A stretch of 27,956 bases of DNA from a virus (Duplodnaviria; Caudoviricetes). How positions within the stretch are numbered: the first letter of the stretch is position 1; every line of letters begins with the position of its first letter. Location of the stretch: positions 1 to 27,956 of the IMG/VR virus record IMGVR_UViG_3300044580_000255; one strand, given 5' to 3'. A model generated the notes under the pieces. It was not told the DNA's origin. It saw only the letters and a list, made by a program, of their open reading frames with translations, and did not search any database. Position numbers and translations under genes: made by a program. Positions 136-27,834 of this stretch are shown here, piece after piece.

Positions 136-2342
136 AAGGTGGATGTTTGGATTGTTATGCGAAGGGTTGTGGAGAGGAATGCTGTTACGAATGCGAGCGT
201 TACGAGGACTGTAACAGTAGGCAATGCAAGCTAGCAGAGAGTGAAGCGAAGAGGACTGGAAATGATTATCTGGAGGTGATGGCGGGGTATCGGGAGTTCC
301 GGCAGTCGGCAGCTGGAGCAGTGATGGCGGAGGTAATGAAGGATGAGGCGTTCTTCGGGGTCAGCAAAAAGATGGATATGAGTGGCGGCGGAACGGCGTC
401 CGCCGGTACAAACAAGAAGATGGGGACGGATGGCGGCGGAACGGCGTCCGCCGGGATAATCAAGCGGCAGGTGGTAGAATATGTGCCGTATCATAAGCTT
501 GAAGAGGCGCAATTATATGCTTTACTGTTAGAAGAAATAGACAGGCGTTTGCGGGGAGCGAAAAGTAAAACAGCGGAATGGTCAGCTATTGCAAATGATT
601 ATAATAATGGGGAGTTAGTTCCTGAGCTGAAGAGATTGAAGGGCAGGCGGAGTGAGCGGGGGTTGAGGTATTGGTATCAGAAGTGGCAGGAAGCGGAGCA
701 GGATATGTTTGAACTGGTGCATAAGAACAATGCGCAGGTTCGGGGGCGGAAGGTGACATATATGGAGCAGCAGTTTTTGATTGGGGCATTGCTTTGTGGC
801 AGTGAGAAGCCGATAATGAATGCGATTCGGGAGCTAAAGGTGAAGGCGATGCAGGGGATAATGGAAAGTCCGAGCAGTGTAGCGACGCTAAAGCGATGGT
901 GTCGTGACTTTGCAGAGGATAATCCGGCAGAATGGTGTCAGGGTAGGCGGGGAGACAAGGCAGTGATGGAGGAAATAGTAAAGAGCGTTGACCGGGATGA
1001 CAGTAGTATTGAGCCATTACAGGTAGTGGTAGTGGACGGGCATAAGCTGAATGTGTTTGTGGAGAATCCGATAACGGGGAAGGCATTCAGGCCTACACTA
1101 ATAGTGGTTTTTGATTGGGGGACGCGGTATCCGGTGGGTATGTCTCTTGCGCTGACGGAGGATAGTGCGCACACTTTGACAGCTTTCAGGAACGCATTTT
1201 TAAATATGGGGGTATTGCCTAAATGGGCATTATTAGATAACGGCAAGGCATTCAGAAGTAAGCTTTTTAATGAGAAGTGGGAAGAACATAATTTGGAGAA
1301 GGAATTTGCGGGGATATTTCCGAGATTGGGGATAGAGGCACATTTCGCCAGGGCATACAATGCAAAAGCAAAGATAGTGGAACGGTGGTTCAAGACCCTG
1401 GATGATCAATGGAGCAGTAGGCAAGCGAGCTATTGCGGGCGCGACATAAAGAACAAGCCAGCGCAATATGGTCGTAACGAGAAGTGGATGCAGGAGATGT
1501 TTGGAAGTAAGGCAATGGATTATGCGGAGTGCATACACAGCATATATGAGTATATACGCTGGGAATATGGGATGGCAGTGCACAGCAAAACGAAGCAGAG
1601 ACCTTATGAGGCGTTTACCAAGGCAGAACGGGATCCGGAAAGGATAGTAGATCCGATTAAGCTGAACATGCTGATGCTGACGGCAGAGCGTAGGAAGTTG
1701 AGGAGCGAGGGGATAATGCTTTATAAGAACCGGTATTGGGCACCGGAGATGATTGATTATGTAGGCAAGAGGGTGATTATTCGGTATGATTACAATGATT
1801 TAAGAAACATCCTGGTATATGATGAGCGGAGCCGATATATTTGCATGGCGGAGTTGAGAGAGAGTCAGAGCGCATGGGTATATGCCGAGATGGATAATCC
1901 CCTGGTAGCGCAGAAATTGTGGGCAGAGGACAGGGAGATAGAGGGGATTAAACGGACAATTCGGAAGAAGACCAAGCAATTGGTGACCATTAGCAAGAAG
2001 GTGGTGGATGAGACAATGGCCAAACATCAGCATATAATTGATGCCCGTAAAGAAGAAGTTCGGCAGCACAATCCGGCGTTTATGAATGCGTCAATGATGC
2101 CGGAGCGGGTAAAGCGTGTGGATGTGAATGAAGAAGTGGCTGAGTTGGAGCGGATGGCGGCGAGCGCTTTTGCTGAGGTGGTTCCCGCAGATAACGCCAA
2201 TAAAAACGCAGATAGCGCAGATCAAGCAACTGATAACGGGAAGGTGATATTGTTGGAGGATTTGCTGCAGGAAGATGAAGGTGATTTGGTGGAGACGGTG
2301 AGTTTTAGCGAGATGCAGAAGATTATCGGGCTAAAGAAGTAG
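3..2342 (+). CDS. Mu-like DDE transposase (MuA family), 5'-partial
   Basis: The frame is open from base 3, so the TTG at 147 is probably internal. DDE motifs are VVVDGH, LLDNGKAF and AKIVERWF. A Mu transposase C-terminal beta domain is present (GIMLYKNRYW..VIIRYD). The gene is followed by an ATPase. Confidence 0.93.
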   Translation, partial: TTATTATTATTATTETTETTETTETTETTATTATTETTETDATNEGGCLDCYAKGCGEECCYECERYEDCNSRQCKLAESEAKRTGNDYLEVMAGYREFRQSAAGAVMAEVMKDEAFFGVSKKMDMSGGGTASAGTNKKMGTDGGGTASAGIIKRQVVEYVPYHKLEEAQLYALLLEEIDRRLRGAKSKTAEWSAIANDYNNGELVPELKRLKGRRSERGLRYWYQKWQEAEQDMFELVHKNNAQVRGRKVTYMEQQFLIGALLCGSEKPIMNAIRELKVKAMQGIMESPSSVATLKRWCRDFAEDNPAEWCQGRRGDKAVMEEIVKSVDRDDSSIEPLQVVVVDGHKLNVFVENPITGKAFRPTLIVVFDWGTRYPVGMSLALTEDSAHTLTAFRNAFLNMGVLPKWALLDNGKAFRSKLFNEKWEEHNLEKEFAGIFPRLGIEAHFARAYNAKAKIVERWFKTLDDQWSSRQASYCGRDIKNKPAQYGRNEKWMQEMFGSKAMDYAECIHSIYEYIRWEYGMAVHSKTKQRPYEAFTKAERDPERIVDPIKLNMLMLTAERRKLRSEGIMLYKNRYWAPEMIDYVGKRVIIRYDYNDLRNILVYDERSRYICMAELRESQSAWVYAEMDNPLVAQKLWAEDREIEGIKRTIRKKTKQLVTISKKVVDETMAKHQHIIDARKEEVRQHNPAFMNASMMPERVKRVDVNEEVAELERMAASAFAEVVPADNANKNADSADQATDNGKVILLEDLLQEDEGDLVETVSFSEMQKIIGLKK
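383..454 (+). repeat. Two copies of a 24-bp GC-rich palindromic unit, 48 bp apart, inside the transposase
   Basis: TGGCGGCGGAACGGCGTCCGCCGG occurs at 383..406 and 431..454. Each copy contains the stem CGGCGGA/TCCGCCG and encodes GGGTASAG. Confidence 0.9.
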
Positions 2343-2398: not shown

Positions 2399-3109
2399 AT
2401 GAAAGAAGGTAAACTGGCAAGATTAAGCAATGTGATAGCGGCGGACAGGTGCGTGGAGTATCTGCTGGCGCGTCCGAAGCTGGAGATGGTGGGCTTGGGA
2501 TTATTATACGGATATCCTGGGTTGGGTAAGACAACTTATGGGCAGCGGATGGCATATAGCAAGGGTTATTTGTATTTGAGGTTGGAAAATTATATGACGC
2601 CCAAGACCTTTGCGGTGGCTCTGAAAGAAGCATTGATGAGACATTTGGGACTGGGAAGCTATTTGGTGTCAGGAAGCAGTGCAACTATTTACGACAGTGT
2701 GAGAGGATTATTGGTGGAATATCCAGAGACGGTGATCTTGATAGATGAGATAGATTATGCGTTCCAAGAGAAGAAGATATTGGGAGCGATTAGGGACATT
2801 GTAGATCAGACAACGGCAGTAGTGATTCTGATTGGGATGCAGAATGCCAAAGAGCGTCTGTATCAGATTAACCGCTATTATTTTGATAGGTGCGGGGTGT
2901 TTTATGAGTTTCAAGCCCCGAGCAAGAAGGACATAGCGATATTGATGGCTACGGTAATGGAGGTGGGATTTGGAGAGGATATGGTGGATTATATAGCCAA
3001 ACGTAACCAAGGAACATTGAGGGATACGATCAAGTTGATACACAGTGTAGAGAGCGTGGCGCGGGTGAAGAAGCTGGAGCGGGTGACGGTGCAGGATTTG
3101 GAGGGATGA
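2399..3109 (+). CDS. MuB-like AAA+ transposition ATPase
   Basis: Walker A GYPGLGKT, Walker B ILIDEID, a GGAGG RBS, and a position directly after the transposase. Confidence 0.9.
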   Translation: MKEGKLARLSNVIAADRCVEYLLARPKLEMVGLGLLYGYPGLGKTTYGQRMAYSKGYLYLRLENYMTPKTFAVALKEALMRHLGLGSYLVSGSSATIYDSVRGLLVEYPETVILIDEIDYAFQEKKILGAIRDIVDQTTAVVILIGMQNAKERLYQINRYYFDRCGVFYEFQAPSKKDIAILMATVMEVGFGEDMVDYIAKRNQGTLRDTIKLIHSVESVARVKKLERVTVQDLEG

Positions 3110-7277: not shown

Positions 7278-7293
7278 GTAACGCCTGCATACT

Positions 7294-7355
7294 CCAGTCC
7301 ACTCCTGCCACAGTATTTTTAAGAAAATGCAAAAACAGTGGCAGGAATGGACTGG
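7294..7355. promoter_or_regulatory. 18-bp inverted repeat upstream of the late genes
   Basis: CCAGTCCACTCCTGCCAC (7294..7311) and GTGGCAGGAATGGACTGG (7338..7355) are complementary at 17 of 18 positions around an AT-rich spacer. The function is inferred only. Confidence 0.6.
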
Positions 7356-7394
7356 TGTGTTTGACAAGATTAGGGTATGTGGCAGGATGGAGCT

Positions 7395-7844
7395 ATGAGT
7401 AACAGCAAAGCTTTTAGAGAAAAAAAAGAAATGGCGTTTGAGGCCTTTATCAGCGGGAAGACGAGCCCGAAGGAATTGGCAGAGTTAGTGGGCTGCAGTC
7501 CGGTGACGGTGAGCAAGTGGATAGCGAATGGGAAGTGGGACAAGATTGAGGGAGAAGAGCGGAGACTGAACCGGAAGATAACAGTTGCCAGAAGAAAGGC
7601 ATTACTAACAGCACTTGAAGAATATTCCAAAGATCCAAAGAACACAGCTTTGCAATCTCTGGTAGGTATATTGCGGCAGGAGATGAAGCGAGAAGAGCCG
7701 GCGAAGGAACTTTGCAACTACATAGTGAAGTTTTTAGACCAAGTGACAGATTTTATGATTGAGAAGGGGTATGATGGTCTGCTGAAGCAGTTTCAATCAA
7801 TTGTGATGGAATTGGCAGAATATTTGAGGATGAGGAACGGATGA
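7395..7844 (+). CDS. HTH protein, probable terminase small subunit
   Basis: N-terminal HTH (KELAELVGCSPVTVSKWIANGKWD) followed by a helical body. It is the first gene of the late region. An alternative start is 7377. Confidence 0.65.
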   Translation: MSNSKAFREKKEMAFEAFISGKTSPKELAELVGCSPVTVSKWIANGKWDKIEGEERRLNRKITVARRKALLTALEEYSKDPKNTALQSLVGILRQEMKREEPAKELCNYIVKFLDQVTDFMIEKGYDGLLKQFQSIVMELAEYLRMRNG

Positions 7845-7998: not shown

Positions 7999-8304
7999 AT
8001 GGAAGATATAGTAATGAAGATCCTTTTTTTGTTGTTTGGTCTTTATGCGGGGGTGATGAGCTGGCTGTTTAAGATGGCGTGGGATGATGTGCAACGGCTG
8101 AAGCAGGAATTAAACGAACTGTGGAGTGGTTGTGCAAAGTGCCAGACGGGGACATTGGAGAGCATTCGGGAGCTAATAGACGAGCGATTTGACAAATTTA
8201 TGATAACGGTGGAACAGAAGATAGAGCAGGGCTTCACAAAAATAGAACTTACCTGGGTTAATGATGGGCGAATAAGCCCCAAGAAGCAAAAGAAGGAAGG
8301 ATGA
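7999..8304 (+). CDS. Small single-pass membrane protein (holin-like)
   Basis: GAGGAG RBS, an N-terminal TM segment (ILFLLFGLYAGVMSWLF), a coiled coil and a basic C-terminus. Confidence 0.55.
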   Translation: MEDIVMKILFLLFGLYAGVMSWLFKMAWDDVQRLKQELNELWSGCAKCQTGTLESIRELIDERFDKFMITVEQKIEQGFTKIELTWVNDGRISPKKQKKEG

Positions 8305-8600
8305 AAGCCAAGACATTGCAGGCCTTTGAGAAAGATAGCATCTGGTTGAAGATAGCGGTATATGATGAAAGGGGCAAGGCATTTGATTTGGTTGAGAACG
8401 GAATAAGAGAAGCAAAATTTGAAGTGCCAGCCCTGGGAATAGATGTGATTGGAGAGATGAAGGAGAATGTGGTGTGTTTTAAGGTTGGATCTGATATAAC
8501 AGAACAGGGCAGCTATCCCTATTTTGTGGAATTGATAGGCGACAGGATAAAATTTACTGTGGCATACGGTATGCTGCAGGTGATGAGTAAAGAGATATGA
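8301..8600 (+). CDS. Small beta-sandwich virion protein (BppU N-terminal-like)
   Basis: Pattern DS..L.I.V.D..G..FDL....GSYPY.VEL......TVA.G.L.V. The gene is coupled to both neighbours. Confidence 0.5.
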   Translation: MKAKTLQAFEKDSIWLKIAVYDERGKAFDLVENGIREAKFEVPALGIDVIGEMKENVVCFKVGSDITEQGSYPYFVELIGDRIKFTVAYGMLQVMSKEI

Positions 8601-8782
8601 GCATTATAGAAATACGCGTGGTAATTCACCAGCAGATAACAGGAAACATAGGCAGGTATCTGCGCGGCATAGCGCTCAATGCGGGGTTACAACGGACAGA
8701 GGGTAAAGGATTGGATATCAGGATAGCCAAAGAGAGCGGATATATAATAGCGGACGCCAGTGGCGTGAGTGGAAGCTGCTAA
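8597..8782 (+). CDS. Hypothetical protein (61 aa)
   Basis: ATGA overlap with the upstream gene and TAATG overlap downstream. Confidence 0.45.
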   Translation: MSIIEIRVVIHQQITGNIGRYLRGIALNAGLQRTEGKGLDIRIAKESGYIIADASGVSGSC

Positions 8783-8876
8783 TGGAACAATTCATCCAGA
8801 CAGAAGAAAGCATTGGTGGAGATAGCGGCTACGCTGCTGGCGCTTCCTTTTGCAGGAGAGGCACCAAGCTGGATAA
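8782..8876 (+). pseudogene. Decayed copy of the terminase large subunit 5' end
   Basis: Aligns to 12600..12697, including an exact 17-mer GCTTCCTTTTGCAGGAG (8842..8858 = 12665..12681). It is frameshifted after codon 6. Confidence 0.8.
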
Positions 8877-8958
8877 TCGGTGGAACAAAAGGAAATGCGT
8901 ATAGAATGACGGCAGATTGCCGTCAAAACGAACTAAACGAGAATCTTAGGAGGATATA

Positions 8959-9249
8959 ATGGACCAAACTTTAGCTACACGGAGCATCGCGAAGAAGACA
9001 CTCCAATCAATACCGGATCAAGGGCTCCCTTATGGAGCAGATACTCAACTGGAAGGAACTTTCGGTGCGATTACTATATTTCATGCTGATTTTCCCGACG
9101 ATGATAACTCTTTTGAGATCAATGGCGAGGGAGTGAATCTTAGTATTCTGAACGGCATAGTACCGGATGGGTTCACTTACATAAGCCATTTTACGAAGAT
9201 CACTATCCCTGACGAATCGGAAATGGTATTGATAGTGTACGGGTTTTAA
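8959..9249 (+). CDS. Small beta-rich protein, first gene of the DGR cassette (possible spike/fibre base)
   Basis: Strong AGGAGG RBS; the gene ends 1 bp before the target gene. Confidence 0.7.
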   Translation: MDQTLATRSIAKKTLQSIPDQGLPYGADTQLEGTFGAITIFHADFPDDDNSFEINGEGVNLSILNGIVPDGFTYISHFTKITIPDESEMVLIVYGF

Positions 9250-9250
9250 T

Positions 9251-10723
9251 ATGCGGCTGAGGCATGAATTGCGGTTAGGTAGGGAGGGGAATTATCCTCA
9301 GCCATACGGAGTTAGGTTCAACTTTTCGCTACCTGTGACAGGTGAGGCAGGTAAATATTACCGGCTGGGCTCACTATCGGCATACAATGACGGAAATGGT
9401 GCCTTGCAGTGGAATCCTGAAATAGGGGCAAAATGCAAGATACAGCAGAGAATGCGTAGATGTGTGATGCCTGACATCATTGCTGATCCCATGAATCCGC
9501 AAAAAAGCGTAGCATATTACCTTTCACCATTGGATAGTACAAAAAAAGCAGATGGAACGAATGCAGATCTCACTGGTGGTGATGGACAAATAATGGTGGA
9601 GATACCAAAATTCTATCAGAAAATAGTTTTTGATGGTGCAGATACAATGGAATGGTGGATATCTGATTATAAATTAACTGGCTATACTGTTCATCCGGCA
9701 TTCATAAAAAGCATTGGGGGTGTATTGGTGGAAGTACCATACCGCTATATTGGTGCATATATGGGGGCATTACAGGATCAAAATGGAGTATATCAGGACT
9801 ATTATGATGTCAATCCGGAAGCGGTAGGATACCCGCATATTAGGACAATTACCACAGAGCGTCAACTACAAAATGCTACCAACCCGAAATTAGCATCTGT
9901 GAAAGGTAAAATACCAGTAGCACAGGGAACAAGAGCAAAATTCAGAGAAGCAGCGAGGAGAAGAGACGGCAATACTGACGATTCAACATGGCGATTGACA
10001 GATTGGAGTTTATGGAGTGCTATTCAATTACTCTTTTTAGTGGAATATGCATCATTTAACAGCCAAAGAGCATTGGTGGGCAATGATACTGGTGGTCTGA
10101 GCAATATAGCGTCAGGAACTTGGTCGTCATCGGTTTCCGGTGGTAGCTCTACATATTTACCTATTGTGCCTACTGGAGGGACTGAATCGCTGGGCAATTG
10201 TAGCGGAGCGATACCATTGGCTGAGCTATATGGTGACGGGAACGGACTACCAGTATATACCGGTTCTCAAAACTCATTCTGGACAGATAGCATACCCTGC
10301 TATAGAGGCATAGAATCGCCTTATGGAAATATCTGGCAATGGTTGGACGGAATTATTTTGGATTTTGCAACAACCAATAGGATGAACGCATATATATCAG
10401 CGGGTAATTATGTGGACGATAATCCTACGATTAACTACCGCAAATTCATAGCGCATAATGGAAATGATAATGTTCCGGGAAATACATATCCATCCAGAAT
10501 TCATGAAGAAGCCGCATTAGATGGGTTTTATGCAAGGGTGGGTGGCGGTAGCACGATTACAGGACTCACGGATTATTACTATAATACGGGAAGCGCTGGT
10601 AAGCGGGTGGTCGCGGTGGGCGGTATTTCGACTAACGGTGGAGGTGCTGGCGTTTTCTACGTGACTGCGGATAGCGGCTCCGGTACCCGTAATACGCGCA
10701 TTGGCGGGCGGCTCTGCTTATGA
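9251..10723 (+). CDS. DGR target protein: phage fibre/adhesin with a C-terminal C-type-lectin-fold variable domain
   Basis: Motifs DGQIMVEIPKFY, YRGIESPYGNIWQWLDG (GNxWEW-like) and terminal GGRLCL. The last 39 codons are the VR. Confidence 0.92.
   Translation: MRLRHELRLGREGNYPQPYGVRFNFSLPVTGEAGKYYRLGSLSAYNDGNGALQWNPEIGAKCKIQQRMRRCVMPDIIADPMNPQKSVAYYLSPLDSTKKADGTNADLTGGDGQIMVEIPKFYQKIVFDGADTMEWWISDYKLTGYTVHPAFIKSIGGVLVEVPYRYIGAYMGALQDQNGVYQDYYDVNPEAVGYPHIRTITTERQLQNATNPKLASVKGKIPVAQGTRAKFREAARRRDGNTDDSTWRLTDWSLWSAIQLLFLVEYASFNSQRALVGNDTGGLSNIASGTWSSSVSGGSSTYLPIVPTGGTESLGNCSGAIPLAELYGDGNGLPVYTGSQNSFWTDSIPCYRGIESPYGNIWQWLDGIILDFATTNRMNAYISAGNYVDDNPTINYRKFIAHNGNDNVPGNTYPSRIHEEAALDGFYARVGGGSTITGLTDYYYNTGSAGKRVVAVGGISTNGGGAGVFYVTADSGSGTRNTRIGGRLCL
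10603..10720 (+). repeat. DGR variable repeat (VR)
   Basis: 118-bp ungapped match to 10776..10893 with 15 mismatches, all opposite TR adenines. Confidence 0.97.
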
Positions 10724-10762
10724 AAATTGTTAATAATACTAATAAAATAACACCTATGATTC

Positions 10763-10984
10763 GGTGGTTGGCCATGCGGGTAGTCGCGGTGGGCGGTAAT
10801 TCGAATAACGGTGGAAATGCTGGCGTTTTCTACGTGAATGCGAATAACGGCTCCGGTAACCGTAATACGAACATTGGCAGGCAGCTAAGCTTATTTTTAT
10901 TCAGACTGACACCAATCACCATGCCTCTTGGCAAAATACAAAGCAAGCCCAAGGTGTTGGTAGCAATATGCGAAGGCTCCGGGC
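10763..10984 (+). ncRNA. Putative DGR template RNA (TR plus structured flanks)
   Basis: GGTGGTTGG (10763..10771) can pair with CCAATCACC (10912..10920). There is a hairpin TGCC-TCTT-GGCA (10922..10933) and a stem GCCC..GGGC (10947..10984). Confidence 0.6.
10776..10893 (+). repeat. DGR template repeat (TR)
   Basis: Adenine-rich copy of the VR with 30 A and 10 AAY codons in the VR frame, directly upstream of the RT. Confidence 0.97.
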
Positions 10985-10996
10985 GGTAATAAGCAG

Positions 10997-12052
10997 ATGA
11001 AACGAATAGGAATGTTATTTAATCGGATTGTTGACGAGCAAAATATATCAATGGCGCACCAGAACGCAAGGAAAGGCAAGATATGGTATAAAGAGGTAAG
11101 AGCAGTTGATAAAGACACAAAGCAGTATATCCACAAGTTGATGGAAACTCTTATTTCGGGCGAGTATAAAACCTCGCAATATAAGATATTTGAGCGCAAC
11201 TGCGGAGGCAAGGTAAGGACAATCTATAAACTGCCTTATTATCCTGATAGAATTGTGCATCATGCTATTCTTCAGGTTATTTTACCCTATCTGATAAAAA
11301 ACCTAATTGCGGACACATATGCTTGCATCCCAGGTAGAGGCATTCATAAGTGTGCTAAGAAATTAGCCGAGGTTCTTCGCAATGACCGCAAGTTGAAATA
11401 TTGCTTAAAGATGGATATTAGTAAGTTTTATCCAAGCATCGATCATGAGATAATGAAACGTGCAATACGGCGTATAATTAAGTGTAAAAGAACCTTAGAT
11501 CTTCTTGATGAGATAATTGATAGCGCAAATACTGGAATGCCTATTGGCAATTATCTTTCTCAACACTTGGCCAATTTATATCTTAGTGGTTTTGATCATT
11601 GGATAAAAGAAGTAAAAGGCGTAAAACATTATTTCAGGTATTCAGATGATTTGGTAATTATTGAGGATAATAAGCAAAGTCTTCATAGTTTGCGCATGGA
11701 AATATGTGAATATCTATCAAGAGAGCTTAAATTAAGTGTTAAGGATAATTGGCAGGTGTTTCCAATCGAATCTAGGGGAATAGATTTCCTGGGGTATCGG
11801 TTTTATCCTAATTATACATTGCTGCGAAAGTCAATTGCTCTGAAATTTAAGCGGAAAATGCGTAAGCTTAGCAAAGTAGATACTAAACATCAATCTGCAT
11901 TGAGCAGTATTGTGAGCTACTATGGATGGCTATGTCACGCGAATACGCTTAATCTACGGAGAAAGTTCATTACGGACGAGATTATAGACATTGTAAACAC
12001 AGCAAGTGAAGAATTGAAATGCAAAAGCCCAATCAGGAAGATGGTAATATGA
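10997..12052 (+). CDS. DGR reverse transcriptase
   Basis: Motifs GKVRTI, DRIVHHA, YCLKMDISKFYPSIDH, the DGR-typical GMPIGNYLSQ, catalytic RYSDD and GIDFLGY. At 351 aa it has no maturase or endonuclease extension. Confidence 0.96.
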   Translation: MKRIGMLFNRIVDEQNISMAHQNARKGKIWYKEVRAVDKDTKQYIHKLMETLISGEYKTSQYKIFERNCGGKVRTIYKLPYYPDRIVHHAILQVILPYLIKNLIADTYACIPGRGIHKCAKKLAEVLRNDRKLKYCLKMDISKFYPSIDHEIMKRAIRRIIKCKRTLDLLDEIIDSANTGMPIGNYLSQHLANLYLSGFDHWIKEVKGVKHYFRYSDDLVIIEDNKQSLHSLRMEICEYLSRELKLSVKDNWQVFPIESRGIDFLGYRFYPNYTLLRKSIALKFKRKMRKLSKVDTKHQSALSSIVSYYGWLCHANTLNLRRKFITDEIIDIVNTASEELKCKSPIRKMVI

Positions 12053-12342
12053 AACGGTTTAGCGACTTTGCTGAAGAACCACGGCCATTAGAGGGAGATA
12101 AAATAGCCATAGACAGCATATTAAACAAAGAGTTGATTATTACCGGGCATAAGATTGGTAAAACCAAGTATGTGCGAGGCGACTCGGATAAATGCCTTAC
12201 GATTGAAGTTGAGATTGATGGAATAAAAAGAGTGGTGTTTACTGGCAGCAGAGTTTTAATAGATCAGATGGAAAAGTATGGCTGTTATGTACCGTTCGTG
12301 GCAGAAATAGTTAAAATCAATAAGTATTATAGATTCAAATGA
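12049..12342 (+). CDS. Small beta-rich protein coupled to the RT, candidate DGR accessory protein
   Basis: ATGA overlap with the RT stop; 97 aa (MKRFSDF..GDKIAIDSILNKELII..VFTGSRVLIDQ..PF). It is not a four-helix Avd. Confidence 0.75.
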   Translation: MKRFSDFAEEPRPLEGDKIAIDSILNKELIITGHKIGKTKYVRGDSDKCLTIEVEIDGIKRVVFTGSRVLIDQMEKYGCYVPFVAEIVKINKYYRFK

Positions 12343-12349
12343 GGATTAA

Positions 12350-12607
12350 ATGAAAGCAACAGGTAGCACTATTCCACTAAGGGATTTCCAGTATAGCAGA
12401 TATCGCTATATAACATGGGATGCAGAAGAAAAAACAGATGAAGAGGGAAATTCTATAGTTGAGTTTAATTATGCAGAGGCAGAGAGAGATTGTTCAGATG
12501 AACAAATGCGAGCAGCCATATTAGTGGAATTGGCAAAGACCGGCGAAGAAAATCGGATTGATGAGATAATGAACATAGATAATGAAGGGTGTGATATAGA
12601 TGGCTAA
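12350..12607 (+). CDS. Acidic hypothetical protein at the end of the DGR cassette
   Basis: GAGG RBS, 85 aa, overlaps the terL start. Confidence 0.65.
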   Translation: MKATGSTIPLRDFQYSRYRYITWDAEEKTDEEGNSIVEFNYAEAERDCSDEQMRAAILVELAKTGEENRIDEIMNIDNEGCDIDG

Positions 12608-14150
12608 GTTCATCCGCAGCCAGAACAAAGCACTGCAAGAGATTGCAGCGAAGACGCCGCAGGTGCTTCCTTTTGCAGGAGGGACACCGCGGGATAAAGA
12701 AGAGCGAATCAAGCGGTCTACTGGAGAGGGATGGGAAGCGTTTGAGTATTTTTGCAAGACCTATTTTCCCCATGTATTTACGAAGCCGTTTGCGGAGCAA
12801 CACCGGGAGATGTTTGAGGAGACGGAGGCAGCCAGCGGAGTGATCGGGATCACAGGATTCAGAGGGCTGGGAAAGACAGTTATGATGGGGGTGGTGTATC
12901 CACTATGGAAGATTGTGAAGGGATGCCAGTATGTGATTCACACTGCAGCAGATATTGATTTAGCCTGTGAGCGGACGGCATTTACGCTGAATGAGCTGAA
13001 GGAGAACAGAAGATTAGTAATGGACTTTCCAGAGCTGGAGGTGATAGAGGGAGAGAAGGATAATTTTTATTTAAAGAATAGGTGCCGGATTAGGGCAAGA
13101 AGTATAAAGCAGAGCCATAGAGGAACCATCAATCCCAAAACAGCTAAGAGGCCTGGGCTGATTGTCTGCGATGACATTGATAAAGAAGAGAATGTGGGCA
13201 GTCAGACGATTGGAAGGCGGAAGATGGACAAGATAACGCAGGAATTGGCAGGGGCATTGGATCCGGCGAAACCGGGGAAGGTGATTTGGCTGGGGAATTT
13301 GGTGCATCCGAATTATGGGATTTGCCAGTTTATGGAGCTCATAATAGGCGAAATAAAAGCCGATAATCCGGAGATAGAGATTGGATATCAAAAAATAATA
13401 AAGACGAGTCAGAGGGCACTTTTGCGTTATTCATTGGAAGATTCTGAGGGCAGAAGCACTTGGCCGGAGCAATATCCGGATGAGATACTGCAGGAATTGC
13501 GGAAGCGGTATGGGCTTGCGGGTTATCAGAGAGAGATGTTGGGACAGCCGGTGATTGAGGGGAATATCTTTAAGAATGAGTGGTTTAAGCGTTACAAAGT
13601 GCTTCCGGAGCCCAGCAAGATCAAGCGTGTTTGGTTATATGCGGATCCTGCCTGGGGAGAGAAGGGATGCTATAAGGCAATCATCTCCATTGGTTATGAT
13701 GGCAGTTGCTTTTATGTAATTCATGCGTGGATTCGTCAGACGGAGAACACGAAGTTCTTCAGGTATTATTACGATGCTTACCAGGAGTTGGATAGAACAT
13801 ATCGGGTGAAAGCGAGGGCGGCTTGTGAAACGACTTACGGGCAGGGTCGCATCCTGGCAGACTTTGACAGATGGGCAACAGACAATCATCTGCCACCGAT
13901 ATCGCACAGGATAAAGAAGATTGATAATAAAGAGAATAAGAACCTGCGTATTGAACGCACGGAGACACTTATAGAGACGGCAAAGGTGTTGTTTCCAGAG
14001 GGGCAGGATATGCCGACGCTGTTGAGCCAGTTTCTAACATATCCGGATGGGTATGTAGATGGACCTGATGCGCTGGCGGGATGTCTGGAACGCTTCTCCG
14101 AATACGATATTGGCAGGAATAGAGTGAAAGTGCGGAGGATGAGCTGGTGA
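12600..14150 (+). CDS. terL: Terminase large subunit
   Basis: Walker A-like GFRGLGKT, Walker B LIVCDDID, and nuclease motifs YADPA and DGPDA. Confidence 0.9.
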   Translation: MAKFIRSQNKALQEIAAKTPQVLPFAGGTPRDKEERIKRSTGEGWEAFEYFCKTYFPHVFTKPFAEQHREMFEETEAASGVIGITGFRGLGKTVMMGVVYPLWKIVKGCQYVIHTAADIDLACERTAFTLNELKENRRLVMDFPELEVIEGEKDNFYLKNRCRIRARSIKQSHRGTINPKTAKRPGLIVCDDIDKEENVGSQTIGRRKMDKITQELAGALDPAKPGKVIWLGNLVHPNYGICQFMELIIGEIKADNPEIEIGYQKIIKTSQRALLRYSLEDSEGRSTWPEQYPDEILQELRKRYGLAGYQREMLGQPVIEGNIFKNEWFKRYKVLPEPSKIKRVWLYADPAWGEKGCYKAIISIGYDGSCFYVIHAWIRQTENTKFFRYYYDAYQELDRTYRVKARAACETTYGQGRILADFDRWATDNHLPPISHRIKKIDNKENKNLRIERTETLIETAKVLFPEGQDMPTLLSQFLTYPDGYVDGPDALAGCLERFSEYDIGRNRVKVRRMSW

Positions 14151-17537: not shown

Positions 17538-19283
17538 ATGAAGATGAGAATCTTTGAACGAGGGCGCAGGATAGTGAAGGGCGAGCTGAAAAATGTAGAT
17601 GTGGACTTAATCAGTCTGCTGTTTGACGAGATGAAGCCAGCCAATATGAAGAGCGCCGTAATCAAGAGTGCGGACGGCAAGGGGCATTACAAGCCAGTTG
17701 CCGTGAGTGCGAAGTTTAAGAGCGAGACGGTGGGCAAAGAGGGCCTACTGTATGTGACCGTGATGGAGCCGGATGTAGTGGATGCACAGGGTGACAGCTA
17801 CACTGCGGAAGAGGTGAAGAAGGCAGCCATGAACTTCCTAAAGAAGGGAGTGGTGGGCAAGAACGATGTGAACCATAACAACCAACCCGTCCCGGAGTTT
17901 GTAATCGCAGAGTCGTATATCCTCAAAAGCGAGGACAAAGAGCACTTTCCCGATACCAAGATAGGCAGTTGGGTGGCGGTGCTGAAGTGCGAGGACCTGC
18001 AGAGTGAGCTTTGGCAGAAGGTAGTGAAGGGACGATTTAACGGCGTAAGCATAGCCGGCTATGCCGAGGACAATGGAAGCAGTAATGCCGCGTTAGTAGC
18101 GGAGCTGAAGAGCCAGCTGGAAGAAATCCGGAAAGCGATCGGGGGGCAACCCAATCAGGAAACCGAAAAGGTGCTGGATAAGCTGCAGGAGAGGATCAAT
18201 GAGCTGGAGAAGGCGGACAAAGGGACCGAAACGACCCAGCTTATCAAGGCATTCACAGAAGAAATCAAGGAGCTGAGTATGGCAATTAAAAAGGCGATAT
18301 CCAAGAGCTTGAAGGGAGAACCGGAGGGGAACGAAATAAAAGACCGCGAGGTGATGATTGATGGCAACAAGGTGGTGGTAAAAAGCACCCATCGCGAGAT
18401 TTACAAAGGCATAGCGGATGTGGACAGCGGCATGGCGATGAATATCCTGACAGCCAATACCACGAGTTTGTTCATAGACGAGGTGATCGGCAGCCAGCCA
18501 GGAGACACCTTGAGCGACATCACGGTGGTTCCGCTACTCAAAGACGAGAAGATTGATGCCGGTTTGGTGCAGGATTTGGTATTCAAGAATGCACTGGACG
18601 GCAGTGTTAGCGCACAGGACATCGCAGGGGCAGACATAACCTGCCCGACCGGCATCCTGAATGCCGAGTTCACCCTCGGAAGAGATGTTGTGGAATTCTA
18701 CAAGGATAAGTATGGCGCTGATGCCTTCGGAGCTTATGTGGAGCAGCACATTGCCCGTAAAGCGGAGAAAGCGCTGCGCTTGCTACTGTTCAGAGGTGAC
18801 CGTGATAGCGGGACCGCTAACCTGAAGGGATTGAATGGAGTGATCAAGTTGGCTACGACAGCAAGTGCGATAGTGGAAATTGATGCTGAGACCAATGTGA
18901 ACTGGGACGAAAAGTTTGAGGCAGCTTTGCTGGCATTTAGCGATGCCATGCTGGAAGACCAGGAGAACTTTAAGTTCTATGTAAGCCATAAGGACCTGGT
19001 GCGAATTCGCAGTGAGATTGCCCGCAGACAAACCGTAGCCGGTGACCGTCTCTTGCTGGAAGGCGGGAATGTGAGCTTTGCCGGGATTCCCGTGAAGCCG
19101 CGTTTAATGCCAGATAACTACATAATCGGCGGATTGCCCAAGTTCATCATTTTGGGTTACCGGACTGACGCCGAAATGAAGGTGGAGCATCATGGCAGCG
19201 ACTGGAAGTATCACTGGTACATCCGCGTGAGGCCTGGGATCACATACGTTGACGGCTTTGTGAAAGTGTTCAATGTGACTTAA
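17538..19283 (+). CDS. Fused prohead protease (XkdF-like), scaffold and major capsid protein
   Basis: N-terminal V.EPD.VDAQGD....EEV.KAA..F, VAESYI-like, GSWV and W.KV.KG...G.SI.G motifs; a central coiled coil; a C-terminal HK97-like region (LLLFRGD..GLNGVIKLA). The start may be 17544. Confidence 0.82.
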   Translation: MKMRIFERGRRIVKGELKNVDVDLISLLFDEMKPANMKSAVIKSADGKGHYKPVAVSAKFKSETVGKEGLLYVTVMEPDVVDAQGDSYTAEEVKKAAMNFLKKGVVGKNDVNHNNQPVPEFVIAESYILKSEDKEHFPDTKIGSWVAVLKCEDLQSELWQKVVKGRFNGVSIAGYAEDNGSSNAALVAELKSQLEEIRKAIGGQPNQETEKVLDKLQERINELEKADKGTETTQLIKAFTEEIKELSMAIKKAISKSLKGEPEGNEIKDREVMIDGNKVVVKSTHREIYKGIADVDSGMAMNILTANTTSLFIDEVIGSQPGDTLSDITVVPLLKDEKIDAGLVQDLVFKNALDGSVSAQDIAGADITCPTGILNAEFTLGRDVVEFYKDKYGADAFGAYVEQHIARKAEKALRLLLFRGDRDSGTANLKGLNGVIKLATTASAIVEIDAETNVNWDEKFEAALLAFSDAMLEDQENFKFYVSHKDLVRIRSEIARRQTVAGDRLLLEGGNVSFAGIPVKPRLMPDNYIIGGLPKFIILGYRTDAEMKVEHHGSDWKYHWYIRVRPGITYVDGFVKVFNVT

Positions 19284-27678: not shown

Positions 27679-27683
27679 GAGCA

Positions 27684-27834
27684 TGCAAGAATGGTGAGCT
27701 AATTTGCAAGAATGGTGAGCTGTTCTACAGATGAAATAACTTGAAAGTGCATCTGTAGGCGAAGCTATATATACAACAAATTGCACATATGCAAGAATGG
27801 TGAGCTGGCATGCAAGATTAAGTGAGCTCTTACA
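27684..27834. repeat. Prophage right end: four transposase-binding-like repeats and a terminal CA
   Basis: TGCAAGAATGGTGAGCT at 27684, 27705 and 27790, a variant TGCAAGATTAAGTGAGCT at 27811, then CTTACA ending at 27834. Confidence 0.85.

Follow-up and report, generated by a model that had tools for sequence, protein, structure and literature searches.

The DNA considered here is the whole viral record IMGVR_UViG_3300044580_000255 (Duplodnaviria; Caudoviricetes), 27,956 nucleotides (nt) long and referred to below as the window. It contains a diversity-generating retroelement (DGR) in which a target gene ending in a variable repeat (VR) is followed by a template repeat (TR), a reverse transcriptase (RT) gene and a small gene for a protein of 97 amino acids (aa). 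The parts of the DGR, all on the plus strand, are as follows.

9251..10723, + strand: DGR target gene, 490 aa (PHROG 5302 tail protein, E 6e-71; profile match to PDB 5VF4, E 2.5e-6)
10603..10721, + strand: VR, defined by its ungapped alignment to TR
10706..10721, + strand: conserved 3′ end of VR, IMH-like (IMH: initiation of mutagenic homing; same VR bases versus TR in 8-9 of 9 related cassettes)
10776..10894, + strand: TR, with 30 adenines and 10 AAY codons
10895..10996, + strand: conserved spacer, predicted to form a structured region in the DGR RNA (12-sequence alignment and consensus fold)
10997..12052, + strand: DGR RT, 351 aa, YSDD (Pfam RVT_1, E 5e-18; RT-relative loci with TR and VR)
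12049..12342, + strand: candidate accessory protein, 97 aa, with a predicted oligonucleotide/oligosaccharide-binding (OB) fold (RT linkage, fusions and fold model)

VR and TR align without gaps over 119 base pairs, one matching base more than the 118 found in an earlier reading of the letters alone (the sequence-only reading), whose counts of mismatches, adenines and AAY codons are reproduced by the alignment. All 15 mismatches fall at TR adenines (8 A>G, 5 A>C and 2 A>T); the chance of 15 random mismatches all falling on A is 4e-11. The ten AAY codons correspond to target codons 459, 461, 462, 465, 472, 474, 475, 479, 481 and 483. Towards the 3′ end, VR bases 10710, 10714 and 10715 are identical in 9/9 related cassettes and base 10706 in 8/9. 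Because these bases are constant, 3-4 of the 15 mismatches would be fixed differences of the IMH/IMH* type rather than fresh mutations, and about 11 mismatches fall within the diversified part of VR. By this comparison, the 3′ ends of VR and TR carry IMH/IMH*-type differences.

The RT is encoded by an intact open reading frame (ORF) with the motifs IGNYLSQ and YSDD, as the sequence-only reading had described. It was compared with the 80 best RT-relative loci, clustered at 70% RT identity (n=30); related loci are designated here by L-numbers and representatives of protein families by P-numbers. An adenine-biased TR/VR pair is present at 70 of the 80 loci, which identifies the relatives, at sequence level, as DGR RTs and upholds the grouping of this RT with them; the accompanying tree was built from the loci gathered in this analysis, the reference RTs of Wu et al. 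2018 not being among them. YSDD was considered as an inactivating change and rejected, as the motif is common to L017, L082 and L173, and L082 varies in its VR. The spacer following TR shows 72% column identity among 12 sequences, with a consensus fold of 22 pairs, 9 of them with two-sided change; the sequences are related, which makes this a weak test of structure. An 89-aa ORF that runs over TR was regarded as arising incidentally from the TR frame; the part of it that is conserved, its tail, coincides with the conserved spacer RNA.

No avd gene was recognized. In the window PF22296 gave 0/1 matches, but the control also gave no match over the cut-off; among ORFs flanking related RTs, 0/54 were Avd (54 of 67 representatives, 13 being dropped as apparent alternative frames). 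The gap between target and TR is 52 nt, and there is no room for avd between target, TR and RT. The sequence-only reading had called the element complete, which holds for target, TR and RT and does not extend to avd. On the evidence of its sequence, the cassette is an intact Avd-less DGR with the order target-TR-RT.

The target profile matches PDB 5VF4 alone, and the VR stretch itself is weakly matched. In the accessible text of PMC11054128, 5VF4 is named TaqVP, a DGR protein with a C-type lectin (CLec) fold. From these matches, the target is likely a CLec-fold receptor-binding protein or adhesin; a database gene call gives it a later start and 462 aa. Variation can be followed in a sister phage represented by three assemblies, L079, L082 and L083, which have identical TRs and an RT that also contains YSDD. 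L082 and L083, with the same layout, differ at 20 positions in 3081 nt, 19 of which lie in VR and 18 of those at TR adenines, and L082 and L079 differ at 22 positions in 1770 nt, all in VR and 21 at TR adenines. As aligned, the variation in the sister phage is confined to VR and adenine-specific. No difference was found between L029 and L030.

The 97-aa gene is coupled to the RT: its ATG overlaps the RT stop codon (ATGA). A 107-aa version (start 12019) was rejected, since homologues begin at 12049. Of the 80 RT-fetched loci, 57 have a homologue next to the RT: it lies downstream in 50 and upstream, between VR and TR, in 7, the latter placement being found in two RT clades. Counted by RT cluster, 18 have a homologue, 9 do not and 3 are truncated. 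In ANMV-1 and one other archaeal virus the homologue follows the RT. The family profile was derived from 51 homologues adjacent to RTs, and for this reason a converse scan was run in which genome-wide matches were checked for RT neighbours. Scans of three phyla returned 7, 5 and 2 matches in 232, 401 and 399 genomes, and all 12 matches at E<1e-6 adjoin an RT (one RT being frameshifted, and 6 lying in genomes already reached via terL, the gene for the terminase large subunit). Fetching with the 97-aa protein itself gave 11 viral loci: an RT is present in 9, and the other 2 are remnants of DGRs that have no RT. The family comprises 1372 representatives at E<=1e-3. Fusions to the RT are predicted in 14 proteins, with the accessory domain C-terminal in 12 and N-terminal in 2, mostly 35-66% identical to each other; RVT_1 was found in 4/6 long matches checked and in 9/10 'longer' matches, the tenth being an RT C-terminal piece. 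This linkage suggests that the product of the gene likely assists the RT as an accessory factor in Avd-less lineage-3 DGRs.

Several arrangements within the family deserve mention. A large RT clade (L093-L159, 37 loci), whose TRs are short and whose small target genes come as a tandem pair, has the 97-aa family directly after the RT, and P0172 (233 aa) consists of two tandem copies of the accessory domain with no RT domain. At L009 (3754-4270, on a contig shared with L272) the RT is cleanly absent and the spacer runs directly into the accessory gene; TR and VR now differ at 25 positions, 17 of them at A, so that drift has also reached non-adenine sites of TR, as in a frozen DGR. L282 (3200-4270) is an RT-less remnant with target, shortened TR, an apparent short RT end and the accessory gene.

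By sequence, the family gave nothing significant against Pfam, PHROGs or PDB, and there was no Pfam SSB match in 51 members. The AlphaFold2 model of the window protein is a small barrel (pLDDT 91). In a single VIA-align search of 48,161 chains, the best structural match was a RuvBL2 fragment, 2cqa (Z 7.0, root-mean-square deviation (rmsd) 3.0, 69 residues aligned); the single-stranded DNA-binding protein (SSB) 3lgj matched at Z 6.5 (rmsd 2.2, 68 aligned). SSB and PriB proteins, at Z 5-6.5, make up most of the top 15, and the match list also contains editosome OB folds. Language-model neighbours include Phi29_Phage_SSB on 22-44% of members, a weak lead. The isoelectric point (pI) is 8.9 for the window protein and 8.1 on average for the family, which has conserved aromatic residues. 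Judging from the model, the protein is predicted to be OB-fold-like. A complex prediction of RT and 97-aa protein scored 0.00 and gave neither support nor a verdict. CH1, MSL, HRDC and PAG2-4 were also considered as identities and dropped on grounds of size, charge, lack of a Pfam match or comparison by eye.

Comparison with known systems places the cassette close to DGRs without avd. The DGR of Bordetella phage BPP-1 (mtd-avd-TR-brt) depends on the helical protein Avd and on a hairpin that follows VR. It resembles the window in its adenine-specific TR-to-VR mutagenesis, IMH/IMH* differences and conserved spacer after TR, but its avd (architecture B) and GC-rich post-VR hairpin were both not found in the window. 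The published systems that follow are cited from the accessible portions of the papers named. In Wu et al. 2018 (PMC5758913), lineage 3 is without avd, avd-less DGRs are said to imply an Avd-independent mechanism, and architecture A1 (target gene-TR-RT) is classed as without an accessory gene. The window agrees with their lineage 3, A1 and CLec3 in lacking avd, in its target-TR-RT order and in a C-terminal VR ending, by eye, in G-x-R-L-C. In contrast to A1, it has a conserved, RT-coupled, OB-fold-like gene; the lineage was assigned here by features and not by a tree. CH1 (architecture E) is an acidic accessory protein of 160-169 aa (Wu et al. 2018), whereas the window protein is smaller and basic, with 97 aa and a pI of 8.9. 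The supplement of the same paper describes PAG1 in three Bacteroidetes lineage-3 DGRs, between VR and TR, calling it tenuous and with no fold. PAG1-type loci fall inside the main clade of the RT tree of loci gathered here, and inspection by eye shows little difference between PAG1 and the ORFs of upstream type at L153 and L158. A profile built from the other members, with none of the upstream ones, matches the L153/L158 type at E 1e-4 to 2e-3 among 35,046 ORFs. The window protein differs in following the RT, whereas PAG1 lies between VR and TR, and it is 17-18% identical to the upstream type. The by-eye match and the weak profile link nevertheless suggest that it is likely a distant PAG1 relative.

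Two transposable phages are also comparable. Like the window, Hankyphage (PMC12135933) and Mushu (PMC5883640) combine a Mu-type transposase, a phage-borne DGR and a variable virion protein, which in Mushu is Hoc-like (PMC5883640). However, in the text accessed, both have Avd and their hosts are Bacteroides and Faecalibacterium, whereas the window is without Avd, has a likely Cloacimonadota host and carries the cassette before terL. The references of PMC5883640 further include a title from 2013 on retroelements of this kind in Mu-like phages of Firmicutes. The archaeal virus ANMV-1 likewise has the order target-TR-RT and, after the RT, a homologue of the 97-aa gene at 42% identity, but by its annotation it is not a Mu-like phage. 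The ANMV-1 figure legend of Paul et al. 2015 (PMC4372165) lists an 'Avd' ORF, although which ORF is meant could not be read from it, and the accessible text of Wu et al. 2018 (PMC5758913) lists no Avd for this virus. No description of an OB-fold DGR accessory was found in the literature searched, mostly open-access text, so that absence from print is not shown; nothing on the 97-aa protein was found in the accessible parts of bioRxiv 2020.04.01.020958 (Roux et al.), a Bacteroides DGR preprint and PMC8867640.

The cassette lies in a prophage and in a defined slot between terminase genes. The relevant features, all on the plus strand, are listed below.

147..2342, + strand: MuA-like DDE transposase (Pfam Mu-transpos_C, E 7e-20; PHROG 310, E 2e-86)
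2399..3109, + strand: MuB-like AAA ATPase (PHROG 296 DNA transposition protein, E 1e-22)
7377..7844, + strand: terS-like helix-turn-helix gene, left border of the slot (PHROG 4151, E 3e-11; PHROG 1889 terminase small subunit, E 6e-6)
7999..8782, + strand: three small recipient-type slot genes of 101, 99 and 61 aa (57-84% identity to pre-terL genes of the DGR-less L001-L008 and L161)
8782..8866, + strand: left half of the scar, a second copy of the 5′ end of terL, decayed and frameshifted (local alignment to 12600-12697)
8862..8958, + strand: right half of the scar, a donor-type 3′ remnant of a 101-aa gene with ribosome-binding site (aligns to the end of the gene that comes before the cassette in L029 and L010)
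8959..9249, + strand: 96-aa gene preceding the target (66-79% identity in L009, L010, L029, L030, L082, L083 and L204)
12350..12607, + strand: 85-aa acidic gene between the accessory gene and terL (57-58% identity in L079, L082, L083 and L168)
12600..14150, + strand: intact terminase large subunit gene, right border of the slot (PHROG 38, E 1e-65)
27683..27834, + strand: prophage right end, with four repeat copies in two pairs spaced 21 nt and a terminal CA at 27834 (sister-phage identity)
27835..27956, + strand: host flank, from the interior of a gene for a large host protein (40-aa translation)

Across the slot, donor-type genes run over 8959-12607 and recipient-type genes over 7999-8782, with the scar between them. 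Its left half scores 91 and its right half 107 in alignment, in each case against a maximum of 37 for shuffled sequences (300 shuffles for the left half), and 8862-8876 fits both parental sequences. The sequence-only reading had drawn the element at 9251..12342; the cassette is larger, extending over approximately 8862-12607. Among 140 terL loci compared, a terS-like gene lies 5′ of terL in 122, where the slot is visible, and in 106 of these 122 the slot is shorter than 250 nt. Four slots hold a DGR target (3 with RT), and 4 more have an RT just before terL; L082 and L083, found by the RT search, have the full window layout. All nine closest terL relatives (88-89% identity) are without the cassette. 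GC content at third codon positions is 0.29-0.44 in the cassette genes, compared with 0.51-0.65 in MuA, terS, terL, capsid and tape measure genes. From its first 100 nt, the intact terL is nearer to the DGR-less relatives (76-81% versus 58-75%), which implies that the exact donor is unsampled. These patterns point to a likely acquisition of the cassette by recombination into a variable slot before terL. The 85-aa acidic gene was not seen beside distant RTs and therefore probably belongs to the phage and not to the DGR.

In L001 and L162 the slot holds a Peptidase_G2 protein instead, a domain presumably associated with phage spikes; the slot thus likely holds adhesion modules. This alternative content, seen at L001 (8553-10000), L002 and L162, comprises a 309-aa Peptidase_G2 protein and a protein of 177-191 aa, and L003-L008 keep just a short stump of its first gene before terL.

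The carrier itself is a Mu-like transposable prophage, as the sequence-only reading had proposed: genes for MuA and MuB, end repeats and a CA joined to host DNA can all be read from the sequence. Identity to the sister phage ends exactly after the CA at 27834, and the left prophage end falls outside the record. The 40-aa translation of the flank matches long ORFs in 5/5 Cloacimonadota genomes (best E 3e-6), and most of 60 terL-relative genome loci are from this phylum; the host is likely a Cloacimonadota bacterium on these matches. Members of the family turn up very commonly in genome bins of Cloacimonadota (L161-L220), often with several copies per genome, and a few bins assigned to other phyla carry a near-identical terL and may be mis-binned. 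A portal, a protease-capsid protein and a 1089-aa tape measure are also encoded, the protease being of the XkdF type and fused to the major capsid protein (17538-19283). No tail sheath was recognized among the window proteins in Pfam and PHROG scans, which together with the long tape measure suggests a likely non-contractile tail. Just 5′ of the called MuA start, positions 2-145 contain at least 11 tandem 9-bp repeats, which likely encode a peptide repeat of variable length in the N-terminus of MuA; similar arrays occur in L003-L005 and L008. A 28-nt inverted repeat at 7291-7358, between xis-like and terS-like genes, is possibly a terminator or late-promoter site.

In established DGRs, TR and spacer are transcribed, the RT errs at adenines and the complementary DNA (cDNA) replaces VR from the IMH end. 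By analogy, a TR-spacer RNA would be transcribed from the window, the RT would copy TR with adenine errors, and the cDNA would replace VR from its IMH end, rewriting the adenine-templated codons at the tip of the likely receptor-binding protein. The OB-fold protein may bind nucleic acid in single-stranded form, the freshly made cDNA being the likeliest partner and the TR-spacer RNA the other candidate, and would help cDNA synthesis or delivery to VR. It would thus act as a helper in place of Avd, with a fold unrelated to it. We consider it reasonably probable, as a joint reading, that an intact Avd-less DGR was acquired by a Mu-like prophage and rewrites the target tip with an OB-fold-like RT accessory. 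With slightly less confidence, and drawing on the fold model, the 97-aa protein is probably a working DGR component that binds cDNA or RNA and assists synthesis or integration. The wider proposal that Avd-less lineage-3 DGRs are two-protein machines, in which a small OB-fold subunit, from a PAG1 family enlarged to more than 1,000 clusters and frequently fused to the RT, carries mutagenised cDNA or folds template RNA for the RT, stands at even chances.

A number of observations weigh against these proposals. The main objection is that 23/80 RT loci have no homologue, many of them still with TR/VR pairs, so the 97-aa family is not essential lineage-wide; sub-clades without it would have to use another route or a host protein. 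Two weak genome-scan matches (E ~8e-4; L295 and L297) are without RT, and a profile trained on RT-adjacent proteins under-finds distant homologues away from DGRs. Most fusions rest on 1-3 contigs, and the overlap of RT stop and accessory start means that one base change or assembly error can fuse the two. No structural match reaches Z>=8, values below which may reflect a common arrangement alone and show no function, and the Atlas recognition score is under its own threshold. There is no hairpin after VR in the window (z 0.94), with 4 relatives no better than shuffles. The 97-aa gene could accordingly be a passenger, an SSB-like or virion-module gene of the phage that moves along with an Avd-independent DGR whose RT needs no encoded helper, as in architecture A1 of Wu et al. 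2018. The loci that keep TR/VR pairs without the gene, its persistence after RT loss in L009 and L282 and its resemblance to a phi29-like SSB, which suits an ordinary phage gene, would all fit. We judge this unlikely, however, since adjacency to the RT is kept in contexts as unrelated as Cloacimonadota Mu-like phages, two-target DGRs and the archaeal virus ANMV-1, in two RT clades the gene has moved into the interval from VR to TR, it is fused at either RT end, and every strong genome-wide match is RT-adjacent. A true DGR component with a structural or regulatory role, as a separate-chain RT domain or an RNA chaperone rather than a carrier of single-stranded DNA or cDNA, is a somewhat less doubtful alternative, though still a minority one. 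Translational coupling through the ATGA overlap and frequent fusion would be expected of it, and the OB matches include editosome and RuvBL2 domains, which are not SSBs; the predominance of SSB and PriB among the top 15 matches, together with the basic mean pI and conserved aromatics, which suit nucleic-acid binding, speaks instead for the carrier role.

Two further alternatives concern the DGR within its phage. The sequence-only reading had suggested that retrohoming replaces Mu-style inversion, that is, that it took over from Gin-type inversion as the host-range switch. The window is indeed without a recognized invertase although its right end is complete: PF00239 resolvase/invertase gave 0/1 matches in the window, while the control matched in 13/14 genomes, Mom families matched 0/35 window proteins, in line with the earlier report of no gin or mom, and no long inverted repeats flanking tail genes were seen among the 25 longest listed. 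Yet the cassette lies outside the tail module, the DGR-less relatives mostly have a near-empty slot or a Peptidase_G2 gene, and the DGR-less L014 provirus ends in the same tail genes. No invertible module was found in the slot examined in DGR-less relatives, which were not scanned genome-wide for invertases. The DGR is therefore better seen as an optional add-on than as a G-segment swap, and the replacement idea is very improbable. A silent relic, intact in appearance within a decaying prophage, is improbable to a lesser degree. The scar is decayed, so the insertion is not recent, RT-deleted remnants such as L009 exist in the family, and, as a further point against activity here, no reads lie over the window VR. 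The read evidence for 10603-10721 consists of low-depth contigs: in runs X1-X3, no contig covers ~10590-10835, a gap explicable by the TR/VR repeat or by a variable VR, and the VR-like contigs of run X6 come from a different relative (<90%). Against a relic, there is no non-adenine TR/VR difference over 119 bp, all ORFs are open, and near-identical sequence (95-99%) is present in three soil runs of one study. The intact, acquired DGR thus remains our preferred reading.

DGRs in transposable phages were already known, with Hankyphage (PMC12135933), which the sequence-only reading had named, and Mushu (PMC5883640) as cases where activity is shown in the text accessed. That reading placed the novelty in architecture and location; the architecture stands, but the features that set it apart (no Avd, an RT-coupled OB-fold-like gene and an insertion scar) had gone unnamed. 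What is new is a cassette that lacks Avd and has a likely OB-fold accessory, carried by a transposable phage of a likely Cloacimonadota host, with a readable acquisition scar. The scar is a base-level record of a phage gaining a DGR together with its target. The accessible text of the Hankyphage paper (PMC12135933) describes the cDNA-to-VR step as not yet elucidated. A four-part cassette (VR, TR-spacer, RT and 97-aa protein), with natural RT fusions, makes the questions of Avd-independence and of the passage from cDNA to VR directly testable, and could simplify DGR-based mutagenesis tools. If true, the two-protein reading would identify the factor that 'Avd-independent' retrohoming has been missing, and a single-chain RT fusion would be available for studying the unsolved cDNA-integration step.

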